From the NCBI GenBank assembly GCA_018695135.1, contig JABHOV010000059.1, forward strand, positions 12,133 to 76,132: 64,000 nt of DNA. Direction: 5' to 3'. A program made the position numbers and the translations under genes. This stretch comes from Candidatus Melainabacteria bacterium (GTDB lineage: Bacteria; Cyanobacteriota; Vampirovibrionia; LMEP-6097). Positions 5,911 through 58,682 of the stretch are shown piece after piece (within the stretch, counting starts at the first letter, position 1; every line of letters starts with the position of its first letter). Under the pieces are notes generated by a model that was not told the origin of the DNA, searched no databases, and saw nothing but the letters and a program-made list of their open reading frames with translations.

Positions 5911-6032
5911 CCACCCACGTTGAGCCTTGCACTTCTTAACAGATAATTGCACTTTGATATACAGACTCCACCTTGACTTTGTCTGCGGGCATGCAATTAT
6001 CTGTTAAGAAGTGCAAGGCTCAACGTGGGTGG
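5911..6032. repeat. 122-bp perfect palindromic element, 41-bp arms with termini CCACCCACGTTGAGCCTT / AAGGCTCAACGTGGGTGG (family 4, copy A)
   Basis: Arms 5911-5951 and 5992-6032 are exact reverse complements. Confidence 0.9.
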
Positions 6033-9920: not shown

Positions 9921-10808
9921 ATGCAGCTTCAGGATCTCAATTTATCAGAGCTTACGAAAGTAGCGATTCACAAAAGTGTGTCAGAAGAACTTATTTTTGA
10001 TGCCAATGTTTCTGTAGCTTTGTTTCAATTAGGCGAGCCGCCAATGACCTATTATCATCTGCATGGCGCAGAGAATTATCATCCTGCTAGTTTAATTAAA
10101 TTATTTCAAGCTTACTTGGCTAAATACAAAATCCAAAGCAATGTTGTAGATTTTGCCAGAGAAAAAATAGCCGAAACAGATTCTTTTGCATCATCTAATC
10201 ATATGGAGGATGTTTACCAGGCAATCGAGGCAAGTCTCAAAGACTCTGATAATGATGCTTTGAGTTATTTAGTGGACTACAATAGTGGTGTTTGTTCAGG
10301 TCCCCGGCTTGACGAAGAGGATTTTGCTATTTTTAAAGAAGCGCGCGGCGAGCTTAGTGAGTTTTTTCACGGACGAGGTTATAGCAAGAGCCTCAATATT
10401 CCAGGCAAGTGTTTTAGTTTTGCACCTTACGGTAGAGAGACTCAATTGAGCTTGGAGACAGGCGGGCTTGGAACTAATAGCATCAGTGTTCAAGATGTTG
10501 TACAAATTATGTACGCAATCAAAGTTGATTTCCCTGAATTATTAGAATCATTGAGGCGAGATATTGATGACACGGAAGATGAGCAAGTGCAGTTTATTGC
10601 AACTGGTTTGCGCTGCTACAGTGATCAAATTGAGGCTTACTATTCCAAGGCAGGTTGGACTTCGAGGGTTAGGCATGACGTGGCTTATATCAAGGTTAGA
10701 ACAGGCGAAGAATATATTTTGGCAATCATGACTAAGAATTTAAGTGAGTGTACTGATTTGATTCCCGAGATTGCAGAGTGGGTTATAGGATCTTTGTTTA
10801 AAGATTAA
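9921..10808 (+). CDS. Serine hydrolase, class A beta-lactamase-like
   Basis: SLIK (SxxK), SDN and KAGW(KTG-like) elements in expected order. Confidence 0.5.
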   Translation: MQLQDLNLSELTKVAIHKSVSEELIFDANVSVALFQLGEPPMTYYHLHGAENYHPASLIKLFQAYLAKYKIQSNVVDFAREKIAETDSFASSNHMEDVYQAIEASLKDSDNDALSYLVDYNSGVCSGPRLDEEDFAIFKEARGELSEFFHGRGYSKSLNIPGKCFSFAPYGRETQLSLETGGLGTNSISVQDVVQIMYAIKVDFPELLESLRRDIDDTEDEQVQFIATGLRCYSDQIEAYYSKAGWTSRVRHDVAYIKVRTGEEYILAIMTKNLSECTDLIPEIAEWVIGSLFKD

Positions 10809-10811
10809 CTG

Positions 10812-10860
10812 CCTTAAGTGAGTGCAAAGCTCTCTCGTGAGCTTTGCGCTCACTTAAGAC
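10812..10860. terminator. Bidirectional hairpin between convergent genes (CTTAAGTGAGTGCAAAGCTC..GAGCTTTGCGCTCACTTAAG)
   Basis: 20-bp inverted repeat read in sequence; no strong U-run. Confidence 0.5.
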
Positions 10861-10862
10861 GG

Positions 10863-11285
10863 TTAATCTTTGCCATCAATACTAAATTTGCCAGCACCAT
10901 GAGTTAGCAAGACGGAGAGCATTATAAAGTAGTAAAAAGGAATTTCAAAACCGTTAGCACTTGCAGCAAAACCGTTTTTAAAATGCACAACAAAGATTGC
11001 AACGAGCATTGTTACCATTAGTGGTAGCGCAAAGAATCTGGTTTTGAGGCCAAGCACTAAGGCAATTACACCAAGAGATTCTGCTCCTGTTGCCATAACC
11101 GCATTGAGATATGGAAATGGTAAGTGAAGACTATGTTCAAACCACATAACGATGTCGTTGAAATGAGTTAGTTTCTTGAGTGCAGGTTCATAAAAGCCAT
11201 AAGCTAGTGTGAAACGCAAAATCAATAAAGAGAGATCAGCAAAAGAGCTAGTAATTCTATTATATAAGGCTATTAAACTGTTCAT
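10863..11285 (-). CDS. DoxX family membrane protein
   Basis: Four TM helices, DoxX-like length and motif layout. Confidence 0.65.
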   Translation of the reverse strand: MNSLIALYNRITSSFADLSLLILRFTLAYGFYEPALKKLTHFNDIVMWFEHSLHLPFPYLNAVMATGAESLGVIALVLGLKTRFFALPLMVTMLVAIFVVHFKNGFAASANGFEIPFYYFIMLSVLLTHGAGKFSIDGKD

Positions 11286-11439: not shown

Positions 11440-11560
11440 AACCGGTTTTTATTAGAGATCCTGCAAAACTTTGTTTTGCTAGTGATGTCGACACAAAAAA
11501 GTTTGGAACGGTGCGAAGCGCTAGTTCCTGGAGTGAAGAGGATGGGCTTTTTTACAATAA
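11440..11560. repeat. Family 1 structured repeat, intergenic copy (core CCTGCAAAAC-TTT-GTTTTGCTAGTGATGTCGACA..GGAACGGTGCGAAGCGCTAGTTCC)
   Basis: Shares a ~70-nt core with copies at 14545-14665 and 58255-58370. Confidence 0.85.
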
Positions 11561-13769: not shown

Positions 13770-14987
13770 ATGGATAGAAATGGACAAAGATTGGACAATG
13801 TCATCAGCCTTGATCTAAAGCTACAAGGTTTGATTAGTTCTAAATTAAAAAACATTGATCAGTTTAATCTAACTTGGTCAGAATTCGAGTTGAAGGAATC
13901 ACAAGAGTTTTTGCGTGAACTTAAAGAGCTTTCTACTATTCAGAGTATTGGTTCTTCTACGAGAATTGAGGGTTCTAAATTACAAGATGATGAAATTAAA
14001 ACCTTGATCGATAATTTAGATATTAATAAGCTTAAGTCGCGTGATGAAGAGGAAGTGAGCGGCTATTATGAAGCTCTTGATTTGATCTACGAAAATCATG
14101 AGAATTTATTTTTGAGTGAATCATATATAAAGCAATTGCATGCAATTTCGCTTAAGTATAGTTCAAAGGATACTCGCCACCGAGGAGATTATAAATCATT
14201 GTCTAATAAAGTGGTTGCTCAGTATCCTGATGGAAGTTCCAGGGTCGTTTTTGATACTACTGAGCCATACCTAGTGGCAAAAGAGATGACTGATTTGATT
14301 GATTGGTCTAATGAAAGACTTTCATATTCTGGGATTCATTCCTTGATGGTGATAGCTGTTTTTGTTTATGAGTTTCTTTCTATTCACCCTTTTCAAGATG
14401 GCAATGGCCGTTTGTCTCGCTTACTGACCAACTTGTTAATGATGAAGTCAGGTTATAAGTTTGTTCAATATATTTCTTTTGAGCATGTGATTGAACAAAG
14501 AAAAAAAGAATACTATCAAAATCTAATGGAGGCTCAGTCTCAGCGGTTTACGAGACACCCTGCAAAACATGGTTTTGCTAGTGATGTCGACATAAATAAG
14601 GTCGGAACTGTGCGAAGCGCCAGTTCCGCTAATGAAGAGGCGGAGGGCTTTCATGTGAACTGTGCCGCAAGGGAAGATCTTGGCATGTGGATGGTATATT
14701 TCTTAGATTGTGTTGAAAACCTAATCTCAAAACTTAAAACTAAGTTGCACACAAATGATGATCATTGTTTAGATGATTCTGGAGTAAATTTAAGTTCAAC
14801 TCAGAAACAAATCTACACTTTGATCAGCACGAATAAGTCTAGTAAAGTTGAGGATCTGATGAAAGTTTTTCCTGAGATAACGAGACCGACTATTAAATAT
14901 AGTTTGTCGAGGCTTGTTGAGCTTGGTTTAATCAGTCGCCATGGAAGAGGGCGAGGGACTTGGTACCAGACCGCTAAAGCTTACTAA
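13770..14987 (+). CDS. Fic family protein (AMPylase/Doc-like) with N-terminal inhibitory motif STRIEG and C-terminal winged HTH; carries in-frame family-1 repeat
   Basis: HPFQDGNGRLSRLL Fic motif; (S/T)xxxE(G/N) motif near the N-terminus. Confidence 0.85.
   Translation: MDRNGQRLDNVISLDLKLQGLISSKLKNIDQFNLTWSEFELKESQEFLRELKELSTIQSIGSSTRIEGSKLQDDEIKTLIDNLDINKLKSRDEEEVSGYYEALDLIYENHENLFLSESYIKQLHAISLKYSSKDTRHRGDYKSLSNKVVAQYPDGSSRVVFDTTEPYLVAKEMTDLIDWSNERLSYSGIHSLMVIAVFVYEFLSIHPFQDGNGRLSRLLTNLLMMKSGYKFVQYISFEHVIEQRKKEYYQNLMEAQSQRFTRHPAKHGFASDVDINKVGTVRSASSANEEAEGFHVNCAAREDLGMWMVYFLDCVENLISKLKTKLHTNDDHCLDDSGVNLSSTQKQIYTLISTNKSSKVEDLMKVFPEITRPTIKYSLSRLVELGLISRHGRGRGTWYQTAKAY
14545..14665. repeat. 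Family 1 structured repeat inserted in frame in the Fic ORF (encodes ..RHPAKHGFASDVDINKVGTVRSASSANEEAEGF..)
   Basis: Nucleotide identity to copies at 11460-11528 and 58266-58345. Confidence 0.85.
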
Positions 14988-16307: not shown

Positions 16308-16397
16308 TGGGGTCGTATCCTGACATTGGACATTTCTACGGGTTAGGTATTATCACCTTGTTATTAGTTCAAAATGTCCAATGTCAGGATACGACCC
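16308..16397. repeat. Family 2 palindromic element: 26-bp arms GGGTCGTATCCTGACATTGGACATTT / reverse complement around a ~36-nt unique loop
   Basis: Exact inverted repeat; same arms at 47237-47325 and 54184-54276. Confidence 0.9.
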
Positions 16398-16451
16398 TGA
16401 TGGGTCATATGGACTATCTAGATATCCCAGTTAAAGCCGATTAACTATTAT

Positions 16452-31162: not shown

Positions 31163-31352
31163 CCACCCACGTTGAGCCTTCAGATAAGATCCCACCCGCT
31201 GCGTGACATACGCCACTTTTAAGATAAATCGTCTACACAATGGTATTTCTCTGTTGAGTCAGTTTTAGATATCATTTATCTTAAAAGTGGCGTATGTCAC
31301 GCAGCGGGTGGGATCTTATCTCAAAAAGTGGTAAAGGTTGAGACGTGGGTGG
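31163..31352. repeat. Family 4 palindromic element, copy B (~190 bp): termini CCACCCACGTTGAGCCTT / AAGGTTGAGACGTGGGTGG, 49-bp inner inverted repeat
   Basis: Read in sequence; shares 18-bp termini with 5911-6032. Confidence 0.85.
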
Positions 31353-34380: not shown

Positions 34381-34445
34381 GATTTTTGACATCCTTATTG
34401 ACGGCTCAGTCAACTCCGGTGTCAAAAATCTCCTCAGCCTTGTCT
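34381..34445. repeat. Family 5 repeat with nested inverted repeat GATTTTTGACA..TGTCAAAAATC
   Basis: Core ATTGACGGCTCAGTCAACTC shared with 58027-58046. Confidence 0.65.
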
Positions 34446-38376: not shown

Positions 38377-39414
38377 ATGCGTTACCTCTGCTTGATTCTA
38401 TTATTGTTTAGCTCTTCTGCTTGTTCTAAAAAAGCTGCCCCGGTTGCTGCCGTAAAACCATTATTTGTCAAAGCAGAAGCTGCAACTACCGGTGATATAG
38501 AGCGTGCCTTTGAAACGGCTGGTGAACTGAAAGCGGATAAAGAGATTTTGGTTGCAGCTGAGCGGCCGGGGATGGTCAAAGAGATTTATGTGCGTGAAGG
38601 ACAATGGGTTAAGGCAGGTCAGGCTTTGATTCAAATAGAGGGTAAGGATGTTGATGCTGATTTAAAAAAAGCACAAAGTGATTTTGCTTCTTACCAAAAC
38701 CTGTTTGATCAGGGAGCTATTTCTAAACAAGAACTAATTAATTATGAAGCTCAACTGCGTAGAGTCGAGTCACAGATTGATAATCTCCAGATTAATGCAA
38801 TTAGTTCTGGATTTATTGGGGTGATATATGTTGATCCTGGTGACTATGTTAAACGAGGTGATAAGATTCTGGATTTGGTTAAGATTTATCCATTGAGAGT
38901 GAGTTATTCGGTGCCAGAGAAATTGATCTCCAAAATTTTAATTGGACAAAGCGTAGAACTACGTACTGACTCAGAAGCTGGCAAGGTTTTTAATGCAAGT
39001 GTTGATTTTATTTCACCAAGAGTTGATCCTAATACTAGAGCGGTTTTAGTTCGCGGGAAAATCAATAGCCCAAGTACTAATCTCAAAGCTAATCAGTTTG
39101 TTACTGTCAAACAAGTTATTAATAGTTCTAATACGACTTTATTGGTGAGAGAAGAAGCGCTCTATCTTAATCAAGGACAGGAGTATTTGTATCTCGCGTC
39201 GTCATTGCGAGCCGAGGCGAAGCAAGCTAATGTAGAGACTCCGGAGATCGACGCGTCTGATGAACTTGTAGCCAAACGTGTAGCTGTAAAAACCGGTCAG
39301 AGACAAGAAGGCATGGTAGAAATTTTAGAAGGTATTGAAGCTGGTGACAATGTGATCTATGCTGGTTTGCATAGTATTTATCCTGGGGCTAAGTTGGTTT
39401 TGGTTAGTGACTAA
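38377..39414 (+). CDS. RND efflux periplasmic adaptor (membrane fusion protein), lipoprotein; contains family-3 repeat fragment
   Basis: Lipobox SSSAC, coiled-coil hairpin, lipoyl and beta-barrel segments. Confidence 0.8.
   Translation: MRYLCLILLLFSSSACSKKAAPVAAVKPLFVKAEAATTGDIERAFETAGELKADKEILVAAERPGMVKEIYVREGQWVKAGQALIQIEGKDVDADLKKAQSDFASYQNLFDQGAISKQELINYEAQLRRVESQIDNLQINAISSGFIGVIYVDPGDYVKRGDKILDLVKIYPLRVSYSVPEKLISKILIGQSVELRTDSEAGKVFNASVDFISPRVDPNTRAVLVRGKINSPSTNLKANQFVTVKQVINSSNTTLLVREEALYLNQGQEYLYLASSLRAEAKQANVETPEIDASDELVAKRVAVKTGQRQEGMVEILEGIEAGDNVIYAGLHSIYPGAKLVLVSD
39193..39260. repeat. Family 3 repeat fragment inside adaptor ORF (..TCGCGTCGTCATTGCGAGCCGAGGCGAAGCAAGCTAATG..CGACGCG)
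   Basis: Left arm near-identical to 51136-51167. Confidence 0.75.
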
Positions 39415-45661: not shown

Positions 45662-47236
45662 ATGTCTAATTTTCGTTATCGCAGCATACAAATACTCATT
45701 GCTTTAGCATTTCTTGCTATCTTGGGACGTTTATTTCAATTTCAAATTCTTAATGGGCAAAAATATTCTGCTTACATTAAGCGCTATGGACAGACCTACA
45801 AAATTAGTCCTGCAAGAGCAGAGATTGTTGATCGTAACGACAAAGTACTTGCTTTGGATTTGATGAAATATACACTTGAATATAATCCCGTGACTACTAG
45901 TGAGGATAGAGGCATGCTTGCTTTCAAACTAGAGCAAATGATTGATTTGAAAGATCCAGAAGATCTCAATGCTAGTTATAGTAAGACTCTTGCGCATGGT
46001 TTGAGTCGCGAACAGGCAAACAAAATTAGGAAGCTTGATTCCAAATTATTATACTTGCGTCAAGTTAGGCGCAGATTTTATCCACAAGATGAGCTGGCTT
46101 CTCATGTGCTTGGCTATGTTGATCTTTATGGACAAGCAAGGCAAGGTATTGAAGCTGACTATCAAAAGAGATTAGAAGAAGACTCAGAGAACAAGCTTAG
46201 ATTGAGCTTGGATTCTCGCTTGCAAGTTTTTGCCGAAACAGAATTAAAGAAGCGAATTGCTGAAACGAAGGCGGCAAGAGGGACTGTTTTGTTAATGGAA
46301 GTTGCTACTGGACAAATGATGGCAATGGCTACTAGCCCAGGATTCAATCCTAATAACTATTTTGATTTTAGTTTGTCACAAATTAAAAACTGGCCTTTGG
46401 TTGATGTCTATCAACCGGGTTCTATTTTTAAGATAGTGACAGTGGCATCTGCCCTAGAGTCTGGGACTATAGATTTGAGTCATCGTTTTGTAGATGAAGG
46501 CTTTTTGGAGATTGATAAATGGAAAATCAAAAATCATGAATACAAACTAGGTAAGACTGAGGCTGAGGAATTGAATCTGCAAAACTTGTTTGAACGATCA
46601 AGTAATACTTTTGCTGCACATCTGGCACTAGCAATGGGTCCTAAGGTTTTTCATGATCAGATTAGCAAGTTTGGCTTTGGGCAAAAAACGGGGATCGAAT
46701 TAAGTGGGGAGTCCAAGGGTATTTTGCTTAAGCACAAAAAATGGCGTAAGTCCGATACTGCAACTACAGGCATGGGTCATGGTGCCATTTCTGTTACTCC
46801 GTTACAGTTGCTGGCAGCAGCTAATGTCATTGCCAATGACGGTCATTGGGCTAGACCGACTTTGTTTCTTGATTCTAAACAGCCGTTGGCTGAAGAGCTT
46901 GAACCAATTATCAGTGCTGAGCATGCTTATAGTATTAGAAATCTTTTGGCAAGAGCCATTGATCACAATTTGAAATTCAAATCTAGCGTGGCTGGACGTG
47001 TTGATAATTTGACGATAGCTGGTAAAACTGGCACAGCAGAGAAAATCAAAGCAGGTGGAGGCTACTCCAAAAAAGAAACAGTCGCTTCTTTCTTAGGTTT
47101 CTTCCCGGCTTATAATCCAAAATATATCGCCTTAGTTGTAATTGATGATCCCAAGACTGATGGTCGTTGGGGTGATACTGTGGCTGGACCTTTGTTTAAC
47201 AAGATTGCTGCTTACACTAGAGACTTGTATTTATAA
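45662..47236 (+). CDS. Penicillin-binding protein, FtsI/PBP2-type transpeptidase
   Basis: N-terminal TM anchor, SIFK (SxxK), KTGTAE. Confidence 0.85.
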   Translation: MSNFRYRSIQILIALAFLAILGRLFQFQILNGQKYSAYIKRYGQTYKISPARAEIVDRNDKVLALDLMKYTLEYNPVTTSEDRGMLAFKLEQMIDLKDPEDLNASYSKTLAHGLSREQANKIRKLDSKLLYLRQVRRRFYPQDELASHVLGYVDLYGQARQGIEADYQKRLEEDSENKLRLSLDSRLQVFAETELKKRIAETKAARGTVLLMEVATGQMMAMATSPGFNPNNYFDFSLSQIKNWPLVDVYQPGSIFKIVTVASALESGTIDLSHRFVDEGFLEIDKWKIKNHEYKLGKTEAEELNLQNLFERSSNTFAAHLALAMGPKVFHDQISKFGFGQKTGIELSGESKGILLKHKKWRKSDTATTGMGHGAISVTPLQLLAAANVIANDGHWARPTLFLDSKQPLAEELEPIISAEHAYSIRNLLARAIDHNLKFKSSVAGRVDNLTIAGKTGTAEKIKAGGGYSKKETVASFLGFFPAYNPKYIALVVIDDPKTDGRWGDTVAGPLFNKIAAYTRDLYL

Positions 47237-47325
47237 GGGTCGTATCCTGTCATCTGACATTTCAATGTATTACAAACGATCTTAATTAGTGATACACTGA
47301 AATGTCAGATGACAGGATACGACCC
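47237..47325. repeat. Family 2 palindromic element, variant arms GGGTCGTATCCTGTCATCTGACATTT with three compensatory changes in the partner arm
   Basis: Both arms read in sequence. Confidence 0.9.
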
Positions 47326-47871
47326 TGTTTGGCGCAGGAAATCTTCATGTGCATTTTTATTGGTGTAGTTGGTAACGCGCAAATAAGCTGACCAAGGTAT
47401 TTGATTTTCGCTTGCAACTTTGGCTATACCGTAGAGCTCCATGTTTTCTATAATTGCGTCTGTTTGATAATGTTTAATAATTTGTTTGGAGATAGTCTCG
47501 TCTTGAGTGATTTCAAGACTTGAGAGGCATAAAATATTCTTTGAATCTGGATGACTGGCGTGAAGAATAGGATAAATATCTTTGATAGTGTAGCTAAGTC
47601 CTTGAACTGATCCGAGATTTAAAAGAGCTGCAGCACTAACTATGATTTGCTCGCCAATCTTGATATTTTGGCTATAGGCACCGGCTGTGCCAGTAAAGAT
47701 GATTTCGGAGATATCGTTTCTTGATTGAAGTAGTTTAGAGAGATTGACAGCTGCTTCAAGATAGCCAATGCCAAGTACCTCTAAAATATGGGTTTTACTG
47801 GTTAAATAGGGCAAATCCGCTGGATTCTCTGCTAGTTCGTTTTTGCAGGCTGCGCAAATAAGGCTTGTCAT
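47305..47871 (-). CDS. PNP/MTAN-family nucleosidase, possible futalosine hydrolase MqnB
   Basis: Short 188-aa MTAN-like layout (..IIFTGTAGAY..). Confidence 0.55.
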   Translation of the reverse strand: MTSLICAACKNELAENPADLPYLTSKTHILEVLGIGYLEAAVNLSKLLQSRNDISEIIFTGTAGAYSQNIKIGEQIIVSAAALLNLGSVQGLSYTIKDIYPILHASHPDSKNILCLSSLEITQDETISKQIIKHYQTDAIIENMELYGIAKVASENQIPWSAYLRVTNYTNKNAHEDFLRQTGSYPVI

Positions 47872-49189: not shown

Positions 49190-50052
49190 CCTACTTGATT
49201 GAAGCTGATGACTTGGTTGCAACAGTGCCTGGGACTTTGACATTGAAAGATTTGGATAGTGATTTAATTCAACAGTGTTTAATTTCTACTTTGCTTGCTC
49301 CAGCTCATTATACAATTGCACAAATCTTGGCAGAGGATTGGGGACATGACGCTAGGCAGGTTCTGGGACTTGGTTTGAAACATGCCAGTGGCTTGCATAC
49401 CAAAACCGGCGGCAAGGTAATCAAAAATGTATCTGGTTATGATTTGAGTAAAATATATTTAGGTAGTTGCGAATCCTTGGCAAAGATTGAAACAGCAAGT
49501 TTGCGTTTGGAGAAACTACCATTATTGATTTGTGAATTGAGCTTGAAGCTTGAACGAGAACTTGATCTTGACTTGATTGTTTTTTTGCACAAAATAGCGA
49601 CGATGGATTTTGATGAGAGTTTTGATGTGGAATTAAATATGCTCGGTGAGATCAAGTTGAGTTTTACTGCCACAAGTAAAGAACTCATGGCTTTGAAACA
49701 AGCTCGCTTGGCTAGAAGGCTAGAAGGTTTTTGGGATCATGAACTTAGTTTGGATTTTGTGGTACAGCCTTATAAAAAACAATACCCCAGTACTGATTTA
49801 AGGATTGAAATTCATGGAGTTTTGACGACTTTGCTCAATACCGCAAAGTCATTAGGGCAGCCTTGTCAGATCTACCCCAAGAGAGGCTATCTACTGTTAG
49901 AGTCTTCTGTCCAGAATTTAAAAAAGCTAGATGATTGTTACTACTATGTTTATCCCAAGACCGATGAAAACAAAAAACTAGAAACCCAGTTGAACGATAC
50001 TGATAACGCAGAGTTGGATTTATTCAAACAACTCCAAAAGGATTTTGCTTAA
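49186..50052 (+). CDS. GlcE-like FAD-binding subunit lacking the N-terminal part of the FAD_binding_4 domain
   Basis: KTGGKVIKNVSGYDLSKIYLGS motif of glycolate oxidase GlcE; starts where GlcE homologs are ~90 aa in. Confidence 0.55.
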   Translation: MTYLIEADDLVATVPGTLTLKDLDSDLIQQCLISTLLAPAHYTIAQILAEDWGHDARQVLGLGLKHASGLHTKTGGKVIKNVSGYDLSKIYLGSCESLAKIETASLRLEKLPLLICELSLKLERELDLDLIVFLHKIATMDFDESFDVELNMLGEIKLSFTATSKELMALKQARLARRLEGFWDHELSLDFVVQPYKKQYPSTDLRIEIHGVLTTLLNTAKSLGQPCQIYPKRGYLLLESSVQNLKKLDDCYYYVYPKTDENKKLETQLNDTDNAELDLFKQLQKDFA

Positions 50053-51344
50053 TGGACGCAGCGACGATTAATGAAACGATTAAGGCTTGTATTCATTGCG
50101 GTATCTGCCTGCCAGCCTGCCCGACTTATCAGGTAACAGGTAATGAAGGACATTCGCCGCGTGGAAGATTGTACTTAATTAATGATCTCTTGACTAATGA
50201 GACTGGAGCCAGGGAAGATGTCGTTGAGTATTTGGATGGCTGCCTTGAATGCTCCGCCTGTGAAACGGTCTGTCCATCAGGTGTTGACTATGTCAATATT
50301 CTTGAATATGCTCGCCATGAATTGGGTCTGAGCAATTACACTAAGGGCTTTATGGCTGCTGTTAGACGCCTGGTGTTCCAGTATTTATTGCCGAATAGAG
50401 TCTTGTTGAATCTGGCAAGAGTGATGGGGCGTTTTTTGCCTTTGCGGTTATTCAATAAGCTAGCGCCGGGTTTTGATTTTGAATACAAAAAAATCAAGAC
50501 GGATTATATTTATAAATCTCAAAGTCGGACTTCGCGGACAGTCTCCATGCCACTGGGTTGTGTAATGGATACGATTTATAATGATGTGCATTGGGATAGT
50601 ATTCAAGTACTCAACGCTTTTGGTTATGATGTCTATATACCTGAAACTCAGTGCTGCGGTGCTCTTGCTTATCATAGTGGTGAAAACAAACTTGGTGAAA
50701 AACAGCTTGAGGAAACCACGTCGATACTAGCTAAGCATCAGTATCCAGTAGTAATGAACTCAGCGGGTTGTGGGGCTTTTATTAAAAATCATTCTGATTT
50801 AGAATCGATGGATTTAATTGAGGCTTTGAAACAAGCACCGTCATTGCGAGGAGCAGACGCGGCGCGGCAATCTAACGCAGGGGACTGGATTGCCACGCAC
50901 TCTTTGAGTGCTCGCAATGATGAAATAATTTATGCCGTTTACCACCCTGCCTGTCATCTCAATCATAAGCAAGGAGTCTCGCAAGACTATGTTGAATTGT
51001 TGAAAAGAATCCCAAGTTTGGAATTAATACCACTACATGAAGCAGACCTTTGTTGCGGCTCGGCTGGATTTTATAATTTAATTCAAAGCAAGCTTGCTGG
51101 TGAGATTGGTAAACGTAAGGCAGAGAATATTACATCGTCATTGCGAGCGTTAGCGAAGCAATCTAATGCAAGATCCAAGGGCGCGGCAATTAAATTCTCT
51201 GTATTAGATTGCTTCGCTAACGCTCGCAATGACGTGATTGTACTTACTGCAAATCCCGGTTGCATGTCTCAAATCCAAGCTCACTTGGGTGATGAATATC
51301 AAGTTATGCATCCTATTAGTTTGATTAAGCAATACTTGAATTAG
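50052..51344 (+). CDS. glcF: Glycolate oxidase iron-sulfur subunit GlcF-like with two in-frame family-3 repeat insertions
   Basis: Two CxxCxxCxxxCP ferredoxin motifs, two CCG domains. Confidence 0.8.
   Translation: MDAATINETIKACIHCGICLPACPTYQVTGNEGHSPRGRLYLINDLLTNETGAREDVVEYLDGCLECSACETVCPSGVDYVNILEYARHELGLSNYTKGFMAAVRRLVFQYLLPNRVLLNLARVMGRFLPLRLFNKLAPGFDFEYKKIKTDYIYKSQSRTSRTVSMPLGCVMDTIYNDVHWDSIQVLNAFGYDVYIPETQCCGALAYHSGENKLGEKQLEETTSILAKHQYPVVMNSAGCGAFIKNHSDLESMDLIEALKQAPSLRGADAARQSNAGDWIATHSLSARNDEIIYAVYHPACHLNHKQGVSQDYVELLKRIPSLELIPLHEADLCCGSAGFYNLIQSKLAGEIGKRKAENITSSLRALAKQSNARSKGAAIKFSVLDCFANARNDVIVLTANPGCMSQIQAHLGDEYQVMHPISLIKQYLN
50839..50922. repeat. Family 3 palindromic repeat, copy inside GlcF (CGTCATTGCGAG..CTCGCAATGATG)
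   Basis: Arms CATTGCGAG/CTCGCAATG with nested GGCAATC/GATTGCC. Confidence 0.8.
51136..51234. repeat. Family 3 palindromic repeat, full copy: 32-bp perfect arms CGTCATTGCGAGCGTTAGCGAAGCAATCTAAT / ATTAGATTGCTTCGCTAACGCTCGCAATGACG
   Basis: Read in sequence; in frame in GlcF. Confidence 0.9.
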
Positions 51345-54160: not shown

Positions 54161-54183
54161 AGTGAAAAAGATTGTATCACATA

Positions 54184-54276
54184 GGGTCGTATCCTGACAT
54201 TGGACATTTGCTACACTATATATTATCCGCTGGGCAAAGTTATTTAACTAAAATGTCCAATGTCAGGATACGACCC
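54184..54276. repeat. Family 2 palindromic element, third copy
   Basis: Same 26-bp arms as 16308-16397. Confidence 0.9.
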
Positions 54277-54280
54277 TACT

Positions 54281-57620: not shown

Positions 57621-57974
57621 ATGAGACACCAAATAAAGAAAAATAGAATGAATAGACCTGCCGATCAGCGTAAAGCTGCTCTAAGGGCTCTTGCAACATG
57701 TTTACTTCGTGAAAAACAAATCAACACTACTATGGCTAACGCCAAAGCAGTTGCTCCTGAAATCGATAGATTGATTGGACTTGCTGTTCGTGGTGATCTT
57801 CACGCTCGTCGCCAAGTTGCTTCTTTTATTTATGATAAAGATGTAGTCAAAGATTTATTTGCCAATATTGCTGAAAGATATAAAGAACGTAAGTCTGGTG
57901 GATTTACACGTATTGTCAAAGATGGTTTCCGTCGTGGTGATAATGCGCCTAAAGCAATCATTCAACTAGTCTAA
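57621..57974 (+). CDS. rplQ: 50S ribosomal protein L17
   Basis: MRHQIKKNRMNRPADQRKAALRAL. Confidence 0.95.
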   Translation: MRHQIKKNRMNRPADQRKAALRALATCLLREKQINTTMANAKAVAPEIDRLIGLAVRGDLHARRQVASFIYDKDVVKDLFANIAERYKERKSGGFTRIVKDGFRRGDNAPKAIIQLV

Positions 57975-58102
57975 AACTTGCTCTGAGAACTCGATAACTT
58001 CGTTACGCTCGCCCTAATAAGTCATCATTGACGGCTCAGTCAACTCAGCCTTATTAGAACTTCGCAAGCCTCGTTCTCGAGACCTCATAGCAAGTTTGGT
58101 AT
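57975..58102. repeat. Family 5 repeat embedded in a nested palindrome (outer AAACTTGCT..AGCAAGTTT, inner CTAATAAG..CTTATTAG) filling the rplQ-GNAT intergenic region
   Basis: Core ATTGACGGCTCAGTCAACTC at 58027-58046. Confidence 0.65.
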
Positions 58103-58109
58103 TCGGGTA

Positions 58110-58682
58110 ATGAAAGTACGAAAACTAACAACAGATTACTTCAACCAAGTACATGATCTGATCAAGTTTTATTCTGAGCGTCGTTTGATGTTGCCACTTA
58201 GTCTTGATGAGCTTTATCATAGAGCGCAGGCTTATCGAATTATTGTAGGGGACAGCGATAGACATCCTGCAAAACAAGGTTTTGCTAGTGATGTCGCCAC
58301 AAAAGAGGTCGGAATCATGCGGAGCATGTGTTCCGCTAAGGGAAATGAGTTAGACCTTGGCAAGAAGCCTATGGGGACAGTCCTTGCTTGCGCTCATCTC
58401 GATATTTTTACACCACAACTCGCTGAAATCAAAAGCCTTGCTGTTATTGAAACGGAGCATGGTAAAGGCTATGGTAAGACTTTAGTCATGGATTGTGAGC
58501 AAGATGCCAAGGCTATTGGTATCAAGAAGCTTTTTGTCTTAACTTACCAACAGGATTTTTTTACTAAGCTCGGTTACCAGGTTGTTGATCGTAATACTTT
58601 GCCTGAGAAGGTCTATAAAGAATGCATCAAATGTAGCTATTTCGATGATTGTAATGAAATTGCGATGGTTAAGAGCCTCTAG
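58110..58682 (+). CDS. GNAT family N-acetyltransferase with in-frame family-1 repeat
   Basis: Acetyl-CoA binding ..EHGKGYGKTLV.. motif A. Confidence 0.75.
   Translation: MKVRKLTTDYFNQVHDLIKFYSERRLMLPLSLDELYHRAQAYRIIVGDSDRHPAKQGFASDVATKEVGIMRSMCSAKGNELDLGKKPMGTVLACAHLDIFTPQLAEIKSLAVIETEHGKGYGKTLVMDCEQDAKAIGIKKLFVLTYQQDFFTKLGYQVVDRNTLPEKVYKECIKCSYFDDCNEIAMVKSL
58255..58370. repeat. Family 1 structured repeat inserted in frame in GNAT ORF (encodes ..DRHPAKQGFASDVATKEVGIMRSMCSAKGNELDLGKKPMG..)
   Basis: Core CCTGCAAAAC-AAG-GTTTTGCTAGTGATGTCGCCACAAAAGAGGTCGGAATCATGCGGAGCATGTGTTCC. Confidence 0.85.

Follow-up and report, generated by a model that had tools for sequence, protein, structure and literature searches.

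Small dispersed repeats and MITEs of 21-27 nt, whose families co-exist and nest in intergenic DNA, are said to have been described by Elhai and colleagues in 2008 for heterocystous cyanobacteria. Correia elements carry 26-bp repeats, duplicate TA and are not known to be served by any transposase, and the inverted repeats of IS30 are 26 bp long too. Bacterial MITEs such as the Correia elements (NEMIS) of Neisseria are short and non-coding, carry terminal inverted repeats and are often located immediately upstream of genes, to which their ends can contribute promoter elements (PMC10969869). IS30 inserts into near-palindromic hot spots, where the central 2 bp become duplicated, and its own ends serve as targets as well (PMC9333248). 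REPINs are REP doublets which form hairpins and are mobilised by RAYT transposases (Bertels & Rainey 2011, PMC3116915); they combine conserved inverted ends with a less conserved spacer and common compensatory changes (PMC3116915). In this work, a family of hairpins, here called family 2, was analyzed and compared with these systems. On balance, and with moderate confidence, family 2 was taken to be a family of small, non-coding and non-autonomous mobile hairpins of about 84-94 bp in Candidatus Caenarcanales genomes.

In the window, the whole 64-kb stretch of DNA that was analyzed, three elements of 88-93 nt were found, each consisting of 26-nt perfectly complementary arms around a loop of 36, 37 or 41 nt (Table 1). 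A preceding inspection of the letters alone, the sequence-only reading, had listed copies at 16308, 47237 and 54184 with loops of about 36-40 nt; the three copies were all present, copy 1 starting at 16310 since 16308-16309 are its flanking TG, and the longest loop slightly exceeded the expected range. The arm GGGTCGTATCCTGACATTGGACATTT and its reverse complement both occurred exactly in copies 1 and 3. The same exact 26-mer had been ascribed to all copies, but copy 2 carries a variant with three differences from GGGTCGTATCCTGACATTGGACATTT, each of which was mirrored on the partner arm. No arm match was obtained in any of 100 dinucleotide-preserving shuffles of the window (chance expectation 0). 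Stems of 28 to about 37 bp per element were revealed by folding, with energies of -53 to -65 kcal/mol as RNA (z -9 to -15) and -31 to -38 kcal/mol as DNA (z about -10 to -14), and a single arm showed no fold of its own (z 0.96 and -0.59 against shuffles). With their 26-nt perfect inverted arms and a total length of 88-94 nt, the elements are non-coding and have no ORF of their own. These results confirmed that the three hairpins of the window are real and not chance repeats.

Table 1. Parts of the three hairpins in the window and location of the three additional sites
Feature	Position in the window	Remarks
Copy 1, left flanking dinucleotide TG	16308..16309	repeated at 16398-16399
Copy 1, left arm GGGTCGTATCCTGACATTGGACATTT	16310..16335	
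Copy 1, loop	16336..16371	36 nt
Copy 1, right arm	16372..16397	exact reverse complement of the left arm
Copy 2, left arm, variant GGGTCGTATCCTGTCATCTGACATTT	47237..47262	
Copy 2, loop	47263..47299	37 nt; ends prolong the stem
Copy 2, right arm	47300..47325	the three changes of the left arm are present in complement
Copy 3, left flanking dinucleotide TA	54182..54183	repeated at 54277-54278
Copy 3, left arm	54184..54209	identical to copy 1
Copy 3, loop	54210..54250	41 nt
Copy 3, right arm	54251..54276	contains an in-frame ATG
L004		between the starts of a glycosyltransferase gene and a queA-like gene
L006		intergenic
L010		118 nt downstream of a flagellin gene

The window belongs to an 80.7-kb contig of JGI metagenome 3300072015 with a GC content of about 40%, and identical DNA is present in several ENA and JGI assemblies. 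Judged by the methionine aminopeptidase and the CNNM/CorC protein, the closest named genomes are Candidatus Caenarcanales / 'Melainabacteria' MAGs. Further copies were searched with a two-arm pattern, in which the outermost 13 nt of both arms had to be separated by 50-80 nt. This strict pattern had no match in a collection of genomes from 185,579 species, from which the present species is absent, and it matched eight short JGI metagenome contigs of the same organism, five of which re-sample the sites of the window. The new loci L004, L006 and L010 were thereby added, giving six distinct sites in one organism. The sequence-only reading had named three copies alone without flanking duplications as the outcome that would speak against it; what was found is six sites, with repeated flanking dinucleotides at 4/6. 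Recapture across three metagenomes (5/9 for the window sites, and only three other sites, seen once each) suggested that the family is probably low-copy, with roughly 6-10 copies with intact outer arms in this genome, an estimate that is a lower bound for variants, as the exact pattern misses for example arms of the L110 type. No further copy was present in about 10 kb of extra sequence flanking the contig, and no solo, degenerate or decayed arm was detected in about 74 kb (window plus contig flanks). A protein-database search with arm-encoded peptides, which was intended to find more copies, returned nothing at E <= 10. The covariance model built from the six copies found only the L110 ortholog in relatives and one other long hairpin in the window.

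Truncated arm termini were observed beside two of the additional copies, namely TAGGGTCGT at 5 nt from the L010 copy and TACGACCCTA at 13 nt from the L006 copy, the latter at the contig end. At the copy-1 locus of another sample (L008 1826-1872), a population variant was seen in which 21 bp of the left end of copy 1, cccattgGGGTCGTATCCTGA, are duplicated in tandem between two CATTGG microhomologies. No excision or empty-site variant occurred among 7 independent contigs of the same population.

All three copies of the window are intergenic, as had been stated before, and the neighbours of the copies are housekeeping genes. Copy 1 is located between a divergent CNNM/CorC gene and a TrbI-like gene, 25 nt from the CNNM/CorC start, and copy 3 between the divergent genes rpsT and map, at a distance of 23 nt from the start of rpsT and 4 nt upstream of that of map. 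Copy 2 lies between the convergent ftsI-type PBP and PNP-like genes; its left arm begins immediately after the TAA with which the PBP/FtsI gene (45662-47236) terminates, and its right arm, which encodes GSYPVI-stop on the minus strand (47305-47325), provides the PNP-like ORF (47305-47871) with its final 6 codons and its stop. Owing to the ATG in the right arm of copy 3, gene callers prolong Map by 7 residues, MSGYDPT (54260-54280), and the glycosyltransferase at L004 is likewise extended by MSDVRIRPYET. The in-frame ATGs and the stop codon of the arms are therefore a source of misannotation, as in the added start of Map and the GSYPVI end of the PNP-like protein. The position of copy 2 between convergent genes would suit an ordinary bidirectional transcription terminator. 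Nevertheless, no T-run or terminator-like site was present at any of the three window copies, the loops of 36-41 nt are far too long for an intrinsic terminator, and copies 1, 3 and L004 are situated between divergent gene starts; chance palindromes are contradicted by a 26-nt arm repeated at six loci. Terminators and chance palindromes were thus given almost no weight.

It is unlikely, though it deserves some weight, that the copies are structured elements in the service of the host, either as a DNA recognition site for a host protein or as a stable RNA hairpin of 5' or 3' UTRs. Such elements would act in processing or stability, or provide a ribosome-binding AGGA or a -35-like box, and their loci would be kept by purifying selection. 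In line with this, an outward ATGTCA of the arm is found 18 nt from the -10 boxes facing CNNM (TATAAT) and rpsT (TG-n-TACAAT), and AGGA of the arm stands 9 and 12 nt before the start codons of the queA-like gene and map. The promoter-like matches, however, did not outnumber those of shuffles, and L110 has not kept the -35-like box. A portable promoter, made of the arm ATGTCA and a -10 in the flank of copies 1 and 3, was rejected on the same two grounds, and the -10 boxes themselves are ancestral. The neighbours of the copies share nothing (rpsT/map, ftsI, flagellin, the glycosyltransferase/queA pair, CNNM), and the positions are mixed, including divergent starts, convergent ends and downstream sites. 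A family of hairpin RNAs, the alternative offered by the sequence-only reading, may apply but gained no support: no Rfam family matched at gathering thresholds over the whole window, and under permissive settings nothing but generic models of miRNA-precursor hairpins appeared, far below threshold. Assignment of an RNA strand from wobble pairs also failed, as the favoured strand differed between the window and L110.

The -10 box TACAAT of rpsT (minus strand; window 54161-54183) is conserved in relatives (L093 9590-9640; L012 9855-9880), and in L093 it is preceded by a perfect TTGACA at a distance of 19 nt. In the window, copy 3 occupies the upstream side of this box, only 7 nt away, so that the -10 is cut off from any former -35 and the arm ATGTCA is found at 18-nt spacing.

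Among the six copies, 156/156 arm pairs were Watson-Crick. Four arm variants were distinguished, with differences at positions 14, 18 and 19, each mirrored on the partner arm. The both-sided changes amounted to 3 pairs (6 cells), and their covariation score was reached by 0/500 shuffles. In the lineage of copy 2 and L006, the stem reaches into the loop and contains one more compensated pair, T-A versus C-G. These compensated arm changes show that the complementarity itself is maintained. The outer 13 bp of the arms were invariant, and the inner arm contains a tandem GACAT-type heptamer. The loops behaved differently and diverged far faster than arms or flanks. The sequence-only reading had called them unrelated, which was right for the three loops of the window (z -0.6 to 1.8) but not for the family, where the loops of copy 1 and L010 are homologous (30/36 identical, z 9) and those of copy 2 and L006 show a more diverged homology (z 4); the remaining loop pairs were unrelated in alignment. 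Between copy 1 and L010, 0/52 arm positions differed compared to 6/36 loop positions (P about 6e-5 under equal rates), which means that the arms are constrained or homogenised and the loops are not. This difference could also be expected of elements with a host function.

Loops of this kind might be acquired protospacer-like sequences presented by a constant hairpin, that is, guide or spacer loci, given their length of 36-42 nt within the CRISPR spacer range and the constant arms. In conflict with this, the repeats are inverted and not direct, the copies are dispersed singletons and not arrays, and no cas-like genes were found in the contig. The search for protospacer-like targets that the sequence-only reading had proposed gave no meaningful phage, plasmid or viral match: only one match (36 nt, 89%), at chance level, was obtained from 50,697 phage records, and the loops had no match in 72,556 plasmids, in viral contigs or elsewhere in the 1.5 Mb of searched DNA. 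The loop of copy 3 had no relative among the other copies, in the phage, plasmid and viral collections or in other DNA of the organism. In addition, two copy pairs with diverged but homologous loops indicate descent, not acquisition, and an origin of the loops by acquisition was judged extremely improbable.

Shared inverted repeats around unrelated middles, at several intergenic sites near gene starts, are also what a set of invertible DNA switches would show, in which one site-specific invertase flips the unique middle via the repeats; the Mpi-controlled promoters of Bacteroides fragilis are switches of this type. Recombination between the repeats would keep the arms identical and would explain the compensated changes. 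The middles, however, are only 20-42 bp long, and the known invertible segments are much longer. Moreover, the loops contain no convincing promoter, copy 2 sits between convergent gene ends, no recombinase gene was found in the contig, and the loop orientation was the same in 7/7 independent contigs from several samples (consensus contigs). It is therefore quite improbable that the hairpins are switches of this type.

The flanks of the elements were then considered. The flanking dinucleotides of the six copies were TG/TG, AA/TG, TA/TA, TA/TA, AG/TA and TA/TA, so that the 2-bp duplications for which the sequence-only reading had suggested a check were found as identical dinucleotides at 4/6 copies (TA three times, TG once), while 2/6 copies had unequal ones (AA/TG, AG/TA). 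The base following the right arm was T in every copy. In several cases the flanks continue the palindrome, as in copy 1 (ACCCAT-TG..TG-ATGGGT) and L004 (TTCA-TA..TA-TGAA). Past the dinucleotide, flank complementarity was 16/36 compared with 9.2 expected (P about 0.01), and ATG or CAT was present within 7 nt of 7/12 ends compared with 0.94 expected. Because TA is palindromic, duplication and arm extension are inseparable for the TA cases, whereas TG/TG is a direct repeat. From this pattern, we infer a putative 2-bp target duplication.

Based on the comparison with relatives, the history of the three window sites was traced. At the copy-3 site, every relative examined had rpsT next to map, and the spacer, which measured 20 nt (L092), 23 nt (L013), 56 nt (L014), 61 nt (L094) or more (L012, L093), contained a hairpin in none of them. 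The flank of copy 3, ...attgtatcacaTA[E]TAct-ATG with [E] for the element, aligned with ...ataacaTAtacc-ATG of L013 and ...aacaTAt-ATG of L092, and this alignment is compatible with insertion at a TA. In L093 there is no room for an element at the copy-2 site, where the PBP and PNP-like genes share 6 nt. Compared to L093, about 18 C-terminal codons of the PNP-like protein of the window have been lost or replaced, and owing to this difference at the 3' end a clean copy-2 target could not be reconstructed from L093.

The copy-1 site, from which most could be learned, is occupied in another species, L110/L111 (CNNM 81% identical), where a related hairpin was found at exactly the same position with alignable flanks. 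Its arms read GGGTCGTAT-ATG-GACATTGGACAT where the window has ...-CCT-..., and the partner arm has CAT instead of AGG, which makes three further compensated pairs in a block. The loop of L110 is 20 nt long and could not be aligned with the 36-nt loop of the window, while the surrounding spacer is about 75-80% identical. The flanking dinucleotides are TA/TA in L110 and TG/TG in the window; as each pair is internally identical, independent or repeated insertion with 2-bp duplication is the simplest explanation. In the closer relative L108/L109 (CNNM 88% identical, syntenic over 21 kb), the copy-1 site lacks the hairpin, the left arm and the loop, and retains only the inner half of the right arm at 12/13 positions; no inverted repeats of at least 18 nt were found in the syntenic 21 kb of L108. 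The pattern at this site suggested that the element is old and vertically inherited with losses, or that the site is a recurrent target, or both. Two candidate remnants were rejected: a supposed decayed copy in L112, a relative at 73% with a spacer that likewise measures 167 nt, aligned no better than shuffles (z 0.9), and a degenerate arm in the right flank of copy 1, GGGTCATATGGAC, proved to be ancestral flank sequence according to L110 and L108.

What is most unusual in family 2 is that, at an orthologous site, a perfect stem has persisted with a change compensated as a block, together with complete turnover of the loop. Since the loop was replaced while the flanks and arms stayed, the 20-42 nt loop could be regarded as a rewritable segment, and the arms as the site of a dedicated trans-acting protein that maintains the loci. 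Family 2 would then be a hairpin-borne cassette system of Melainabacteria, guide-like or a switch, and not a selfish repeat, but such a system was considered quite improbable. A function for the host would likewise account for arm sequence and pairing kept at an orthologous locus in two species with a replaced loop, and for a low-copy family in which all copies are perfect and no decayed ones occur in about 74 kb. Against it, the sister L108 has lost the element, relatives lack it at the other sites, and the arms of the paralogues (copy 1, copy 3 and L010, which are identical) are closer to each other than those of the orthologous pair of copy 1 and L110. Arms that are identical in paralogues and differ in orthologues speak for within-genome spread or homogenisation, and not for locus-by-locus conservation.

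The preferred interpretation of family 2 as a mobile hairpin is based on its spread over multiple loci, on paralogues that are homologous over the whole element, on sites found empty in relatives and on the pattern of the flanks. It also shows the generic traits of MITEs, with terminal inverted repeats, short length (<300 bp), non-coding sequence, dispersion and presence/absence differences between relatives. The interpretation given in the sequence-only reading was partly borne out. Among its proposals, MITE-like character was the best supported (unlinked copies, two empty sites, paralogues, flank repeats at 4/6 copies, short non-coding sequence); the further claim of a variable cargo did not hold, as the loops are a fast-diverging spacer. 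According to the mechanism proposed here, an enzyme encoded elsewhere in the genome would move or copy the whole element. Within the arms, a trans-acting transposase would probably bind the inner part with the tandem GACAT-type heptamer, and the spacer of 20-42 bp would be unconstrained in sequence. The predicted targets of insertion are AT-rich, near-palindromic sites between genes (CA-TA-TG-like), whose central 2 bp would be entered and duplicated, a mode that matches IS30-type or IS630-type DDE transposases; a TA-only duplication would suggest IS630 instead of IS30.

At some stage, the element would exist as a single-stranded or extruded hairpin, and a change in one arm would at this stage be either lost or copied onto the other arm. 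The matching of the arms might come from selection for hairpin-competent copies and/or from templated 'quasipalindrome correction' during replication, a process established in template-switch mutagenesis, and the unpaired spacer would mutate and be replaced freely. The strict, compensated complementarity exceeds the need of protein-bound terminal repeats, and points to a hairpin form as in REPINs. Several observations weigh against mobility. A mobilising gene is absent from the window and from the rest of the annotation of the 80.7-kb contig, where no transposase, RAYT, integrase/recombinase or cas gene was found. The TA flanks could merely extend the arms, 2/6 copies have unequal flanks, and comparison with L093 shows that no clean insertion took place at the copy-2 site. 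The apparent copy number is low, no empty-site variant was present among the 7 independent contigs, and a freely proliferating MITE family usually leaves decayed copies or solo arms, of which the 74 kb or so contained none. At one and the same site, copy 1 with its perfect stem has been retained, or has arisen again, in two or more species, which could instead reflect a host function.

The window also holds several other hairpin and repeat families, one of them directly beside an arm fragment of another, and such co-residence is typical where small mobile elements have colonised a genome. The hairpins at 5911-6032 (41-nt arms) and 10800-10871 (33-nt arms) are perfect or near-perfect and fill gaps between genes; their counterparts in L108 are a 57-nt gap and a 4-nt gene overlap, and by this comparison they are lineage-specific insertions too. 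A 146-nt hairpin at 31179-31324 (51-nt arms) fills the spacer between a DUF4331 gene and ffh. The 15-nt fragment directly before it (region 31164-31324) equals the arm start of the 5911-6032 hairpin, which suggested nesting. Its inner arm agrees with the family-2 arm at 14/26 positions, with the TGACAT core in common and 50 bits in the covariance model R1, and it may represent a distant cousin family of family 2.

The motif TCGTCATTGCGAGC...GCGAAGCAA forms a hairpin at 51136-51234 and occurs as a half-copy at 39199-39232, inside the 3' parts of the ORFs 50052-51344 and 38377-39414. Just downstream of rplQ, a hairpin of about 125 nt (57974-58097) has a counterpart at the same place in the 80%-identity relative L012 (14102-14226); the inner parts are conserved (CTCGATAA..CGTTACGCTCG...CGCAAGCCT.GTTCTCGAG) and the outer stem sequence differs. 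Its loop motif TCATTGACGGCTCAGTCAACTC, which recurs at 34392-34416, has no Rfam match. A family of direct repeats of about 94 nt, 69-83% identical, was located at 11448-11541, 14547-14640 and 58254-58347. It constitutes a 38-aa in-frame insertion in a Fic protein (13770-14987) compared with the Fic protein of the sister L108, and its peptide motif RHPAK[HQ]GFASDV..KEVG..RS is also found inside an acetyltransferase (58110-58682). In this respect the repeat resembles the Rickettsia palindromic elements, which are in-frame coding insertions. Just past the right end of the window, a length difference between L103 (7183-7502) and L104 (4960-5205) was tried as an indel of an element and rejected. 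It is an unrelated 74-nt tandem repeat which copies the 5' part of a tRNA gene and its upstream sequence, between a Pterin_4a gene and the intact tRNA, in 3 copies in one assembly and 2 in others.

Compared to REPINs, family 2 has the same conserved inverted ends around a spacer constrained mainly in length, which can form a long hairpin in single-stranded DNA or RNA. It is likewise extragenic and non-coding with common compensatory changes, and likewise persists long within a lineage and decays where the system is lost (compare the remnant in L108). Differently from REPINs, the family-2 arm has no REP-type internal palindrome, and A14T of copy 2 breaks the only weak one and is not compensated within the arm. 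Furthermore, no RAYT gene is present in the contig, the copies appear to number about 6-10 versus tens to hundreds per genome, and the flanks suggest a 2-bp duplication, which is not made by HUH/Y1 enzymes. The failed test for a REP palindrome lowers the case that family 2 is a REPIN, not that it behaves like one. With the Correia elements, family 2 shares the form of a short non-coding element with terminal inverted repeats. In Correia elements, however, the copies have a conserved interior and the repeats may mismatch, whereas in family 2 different lineages have unrelated interiors and the arms pair strictly, with compensated changes; the sequences are not related either, the host belongs to another phylum and family 2 is low-copy.

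The likeness to IS30 lies in the flanks (ACCCAT-TG-ATGGGT, TTCA-TA-TGAA, ACCCAT-TA-ATAGGT) and in the truncated arm termini close beside the copies at L010 and L006. As no IS30-type transposase or full-length element with family-2 ends was seen, this is a behavioural analogy only. The cyanobacterial repeats reported by Elhai and colleagues are found in the sister phylum of the family-2 host. The Caenarcanales are an uncultured, non-photosynthetic sister group of cyanobacteria, and this work provides that poorly known group with a defined family of palindromic repeats, together with its covariance model and a comparison of orthologues. Family 2 also offers a compact case of compensated arms, including a 3-bp block, with spacer turnover faster than that of the neighbouring intergenic DNA. 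It leaves the current understanding unchallenged and bears on the persistence of REPIN- and MITE-type elements. Taken together, family 2 is most likely best filed with the bacterial MITE/REPIN kind, as a fairly ordinary element in uncultured Caenarcanales.
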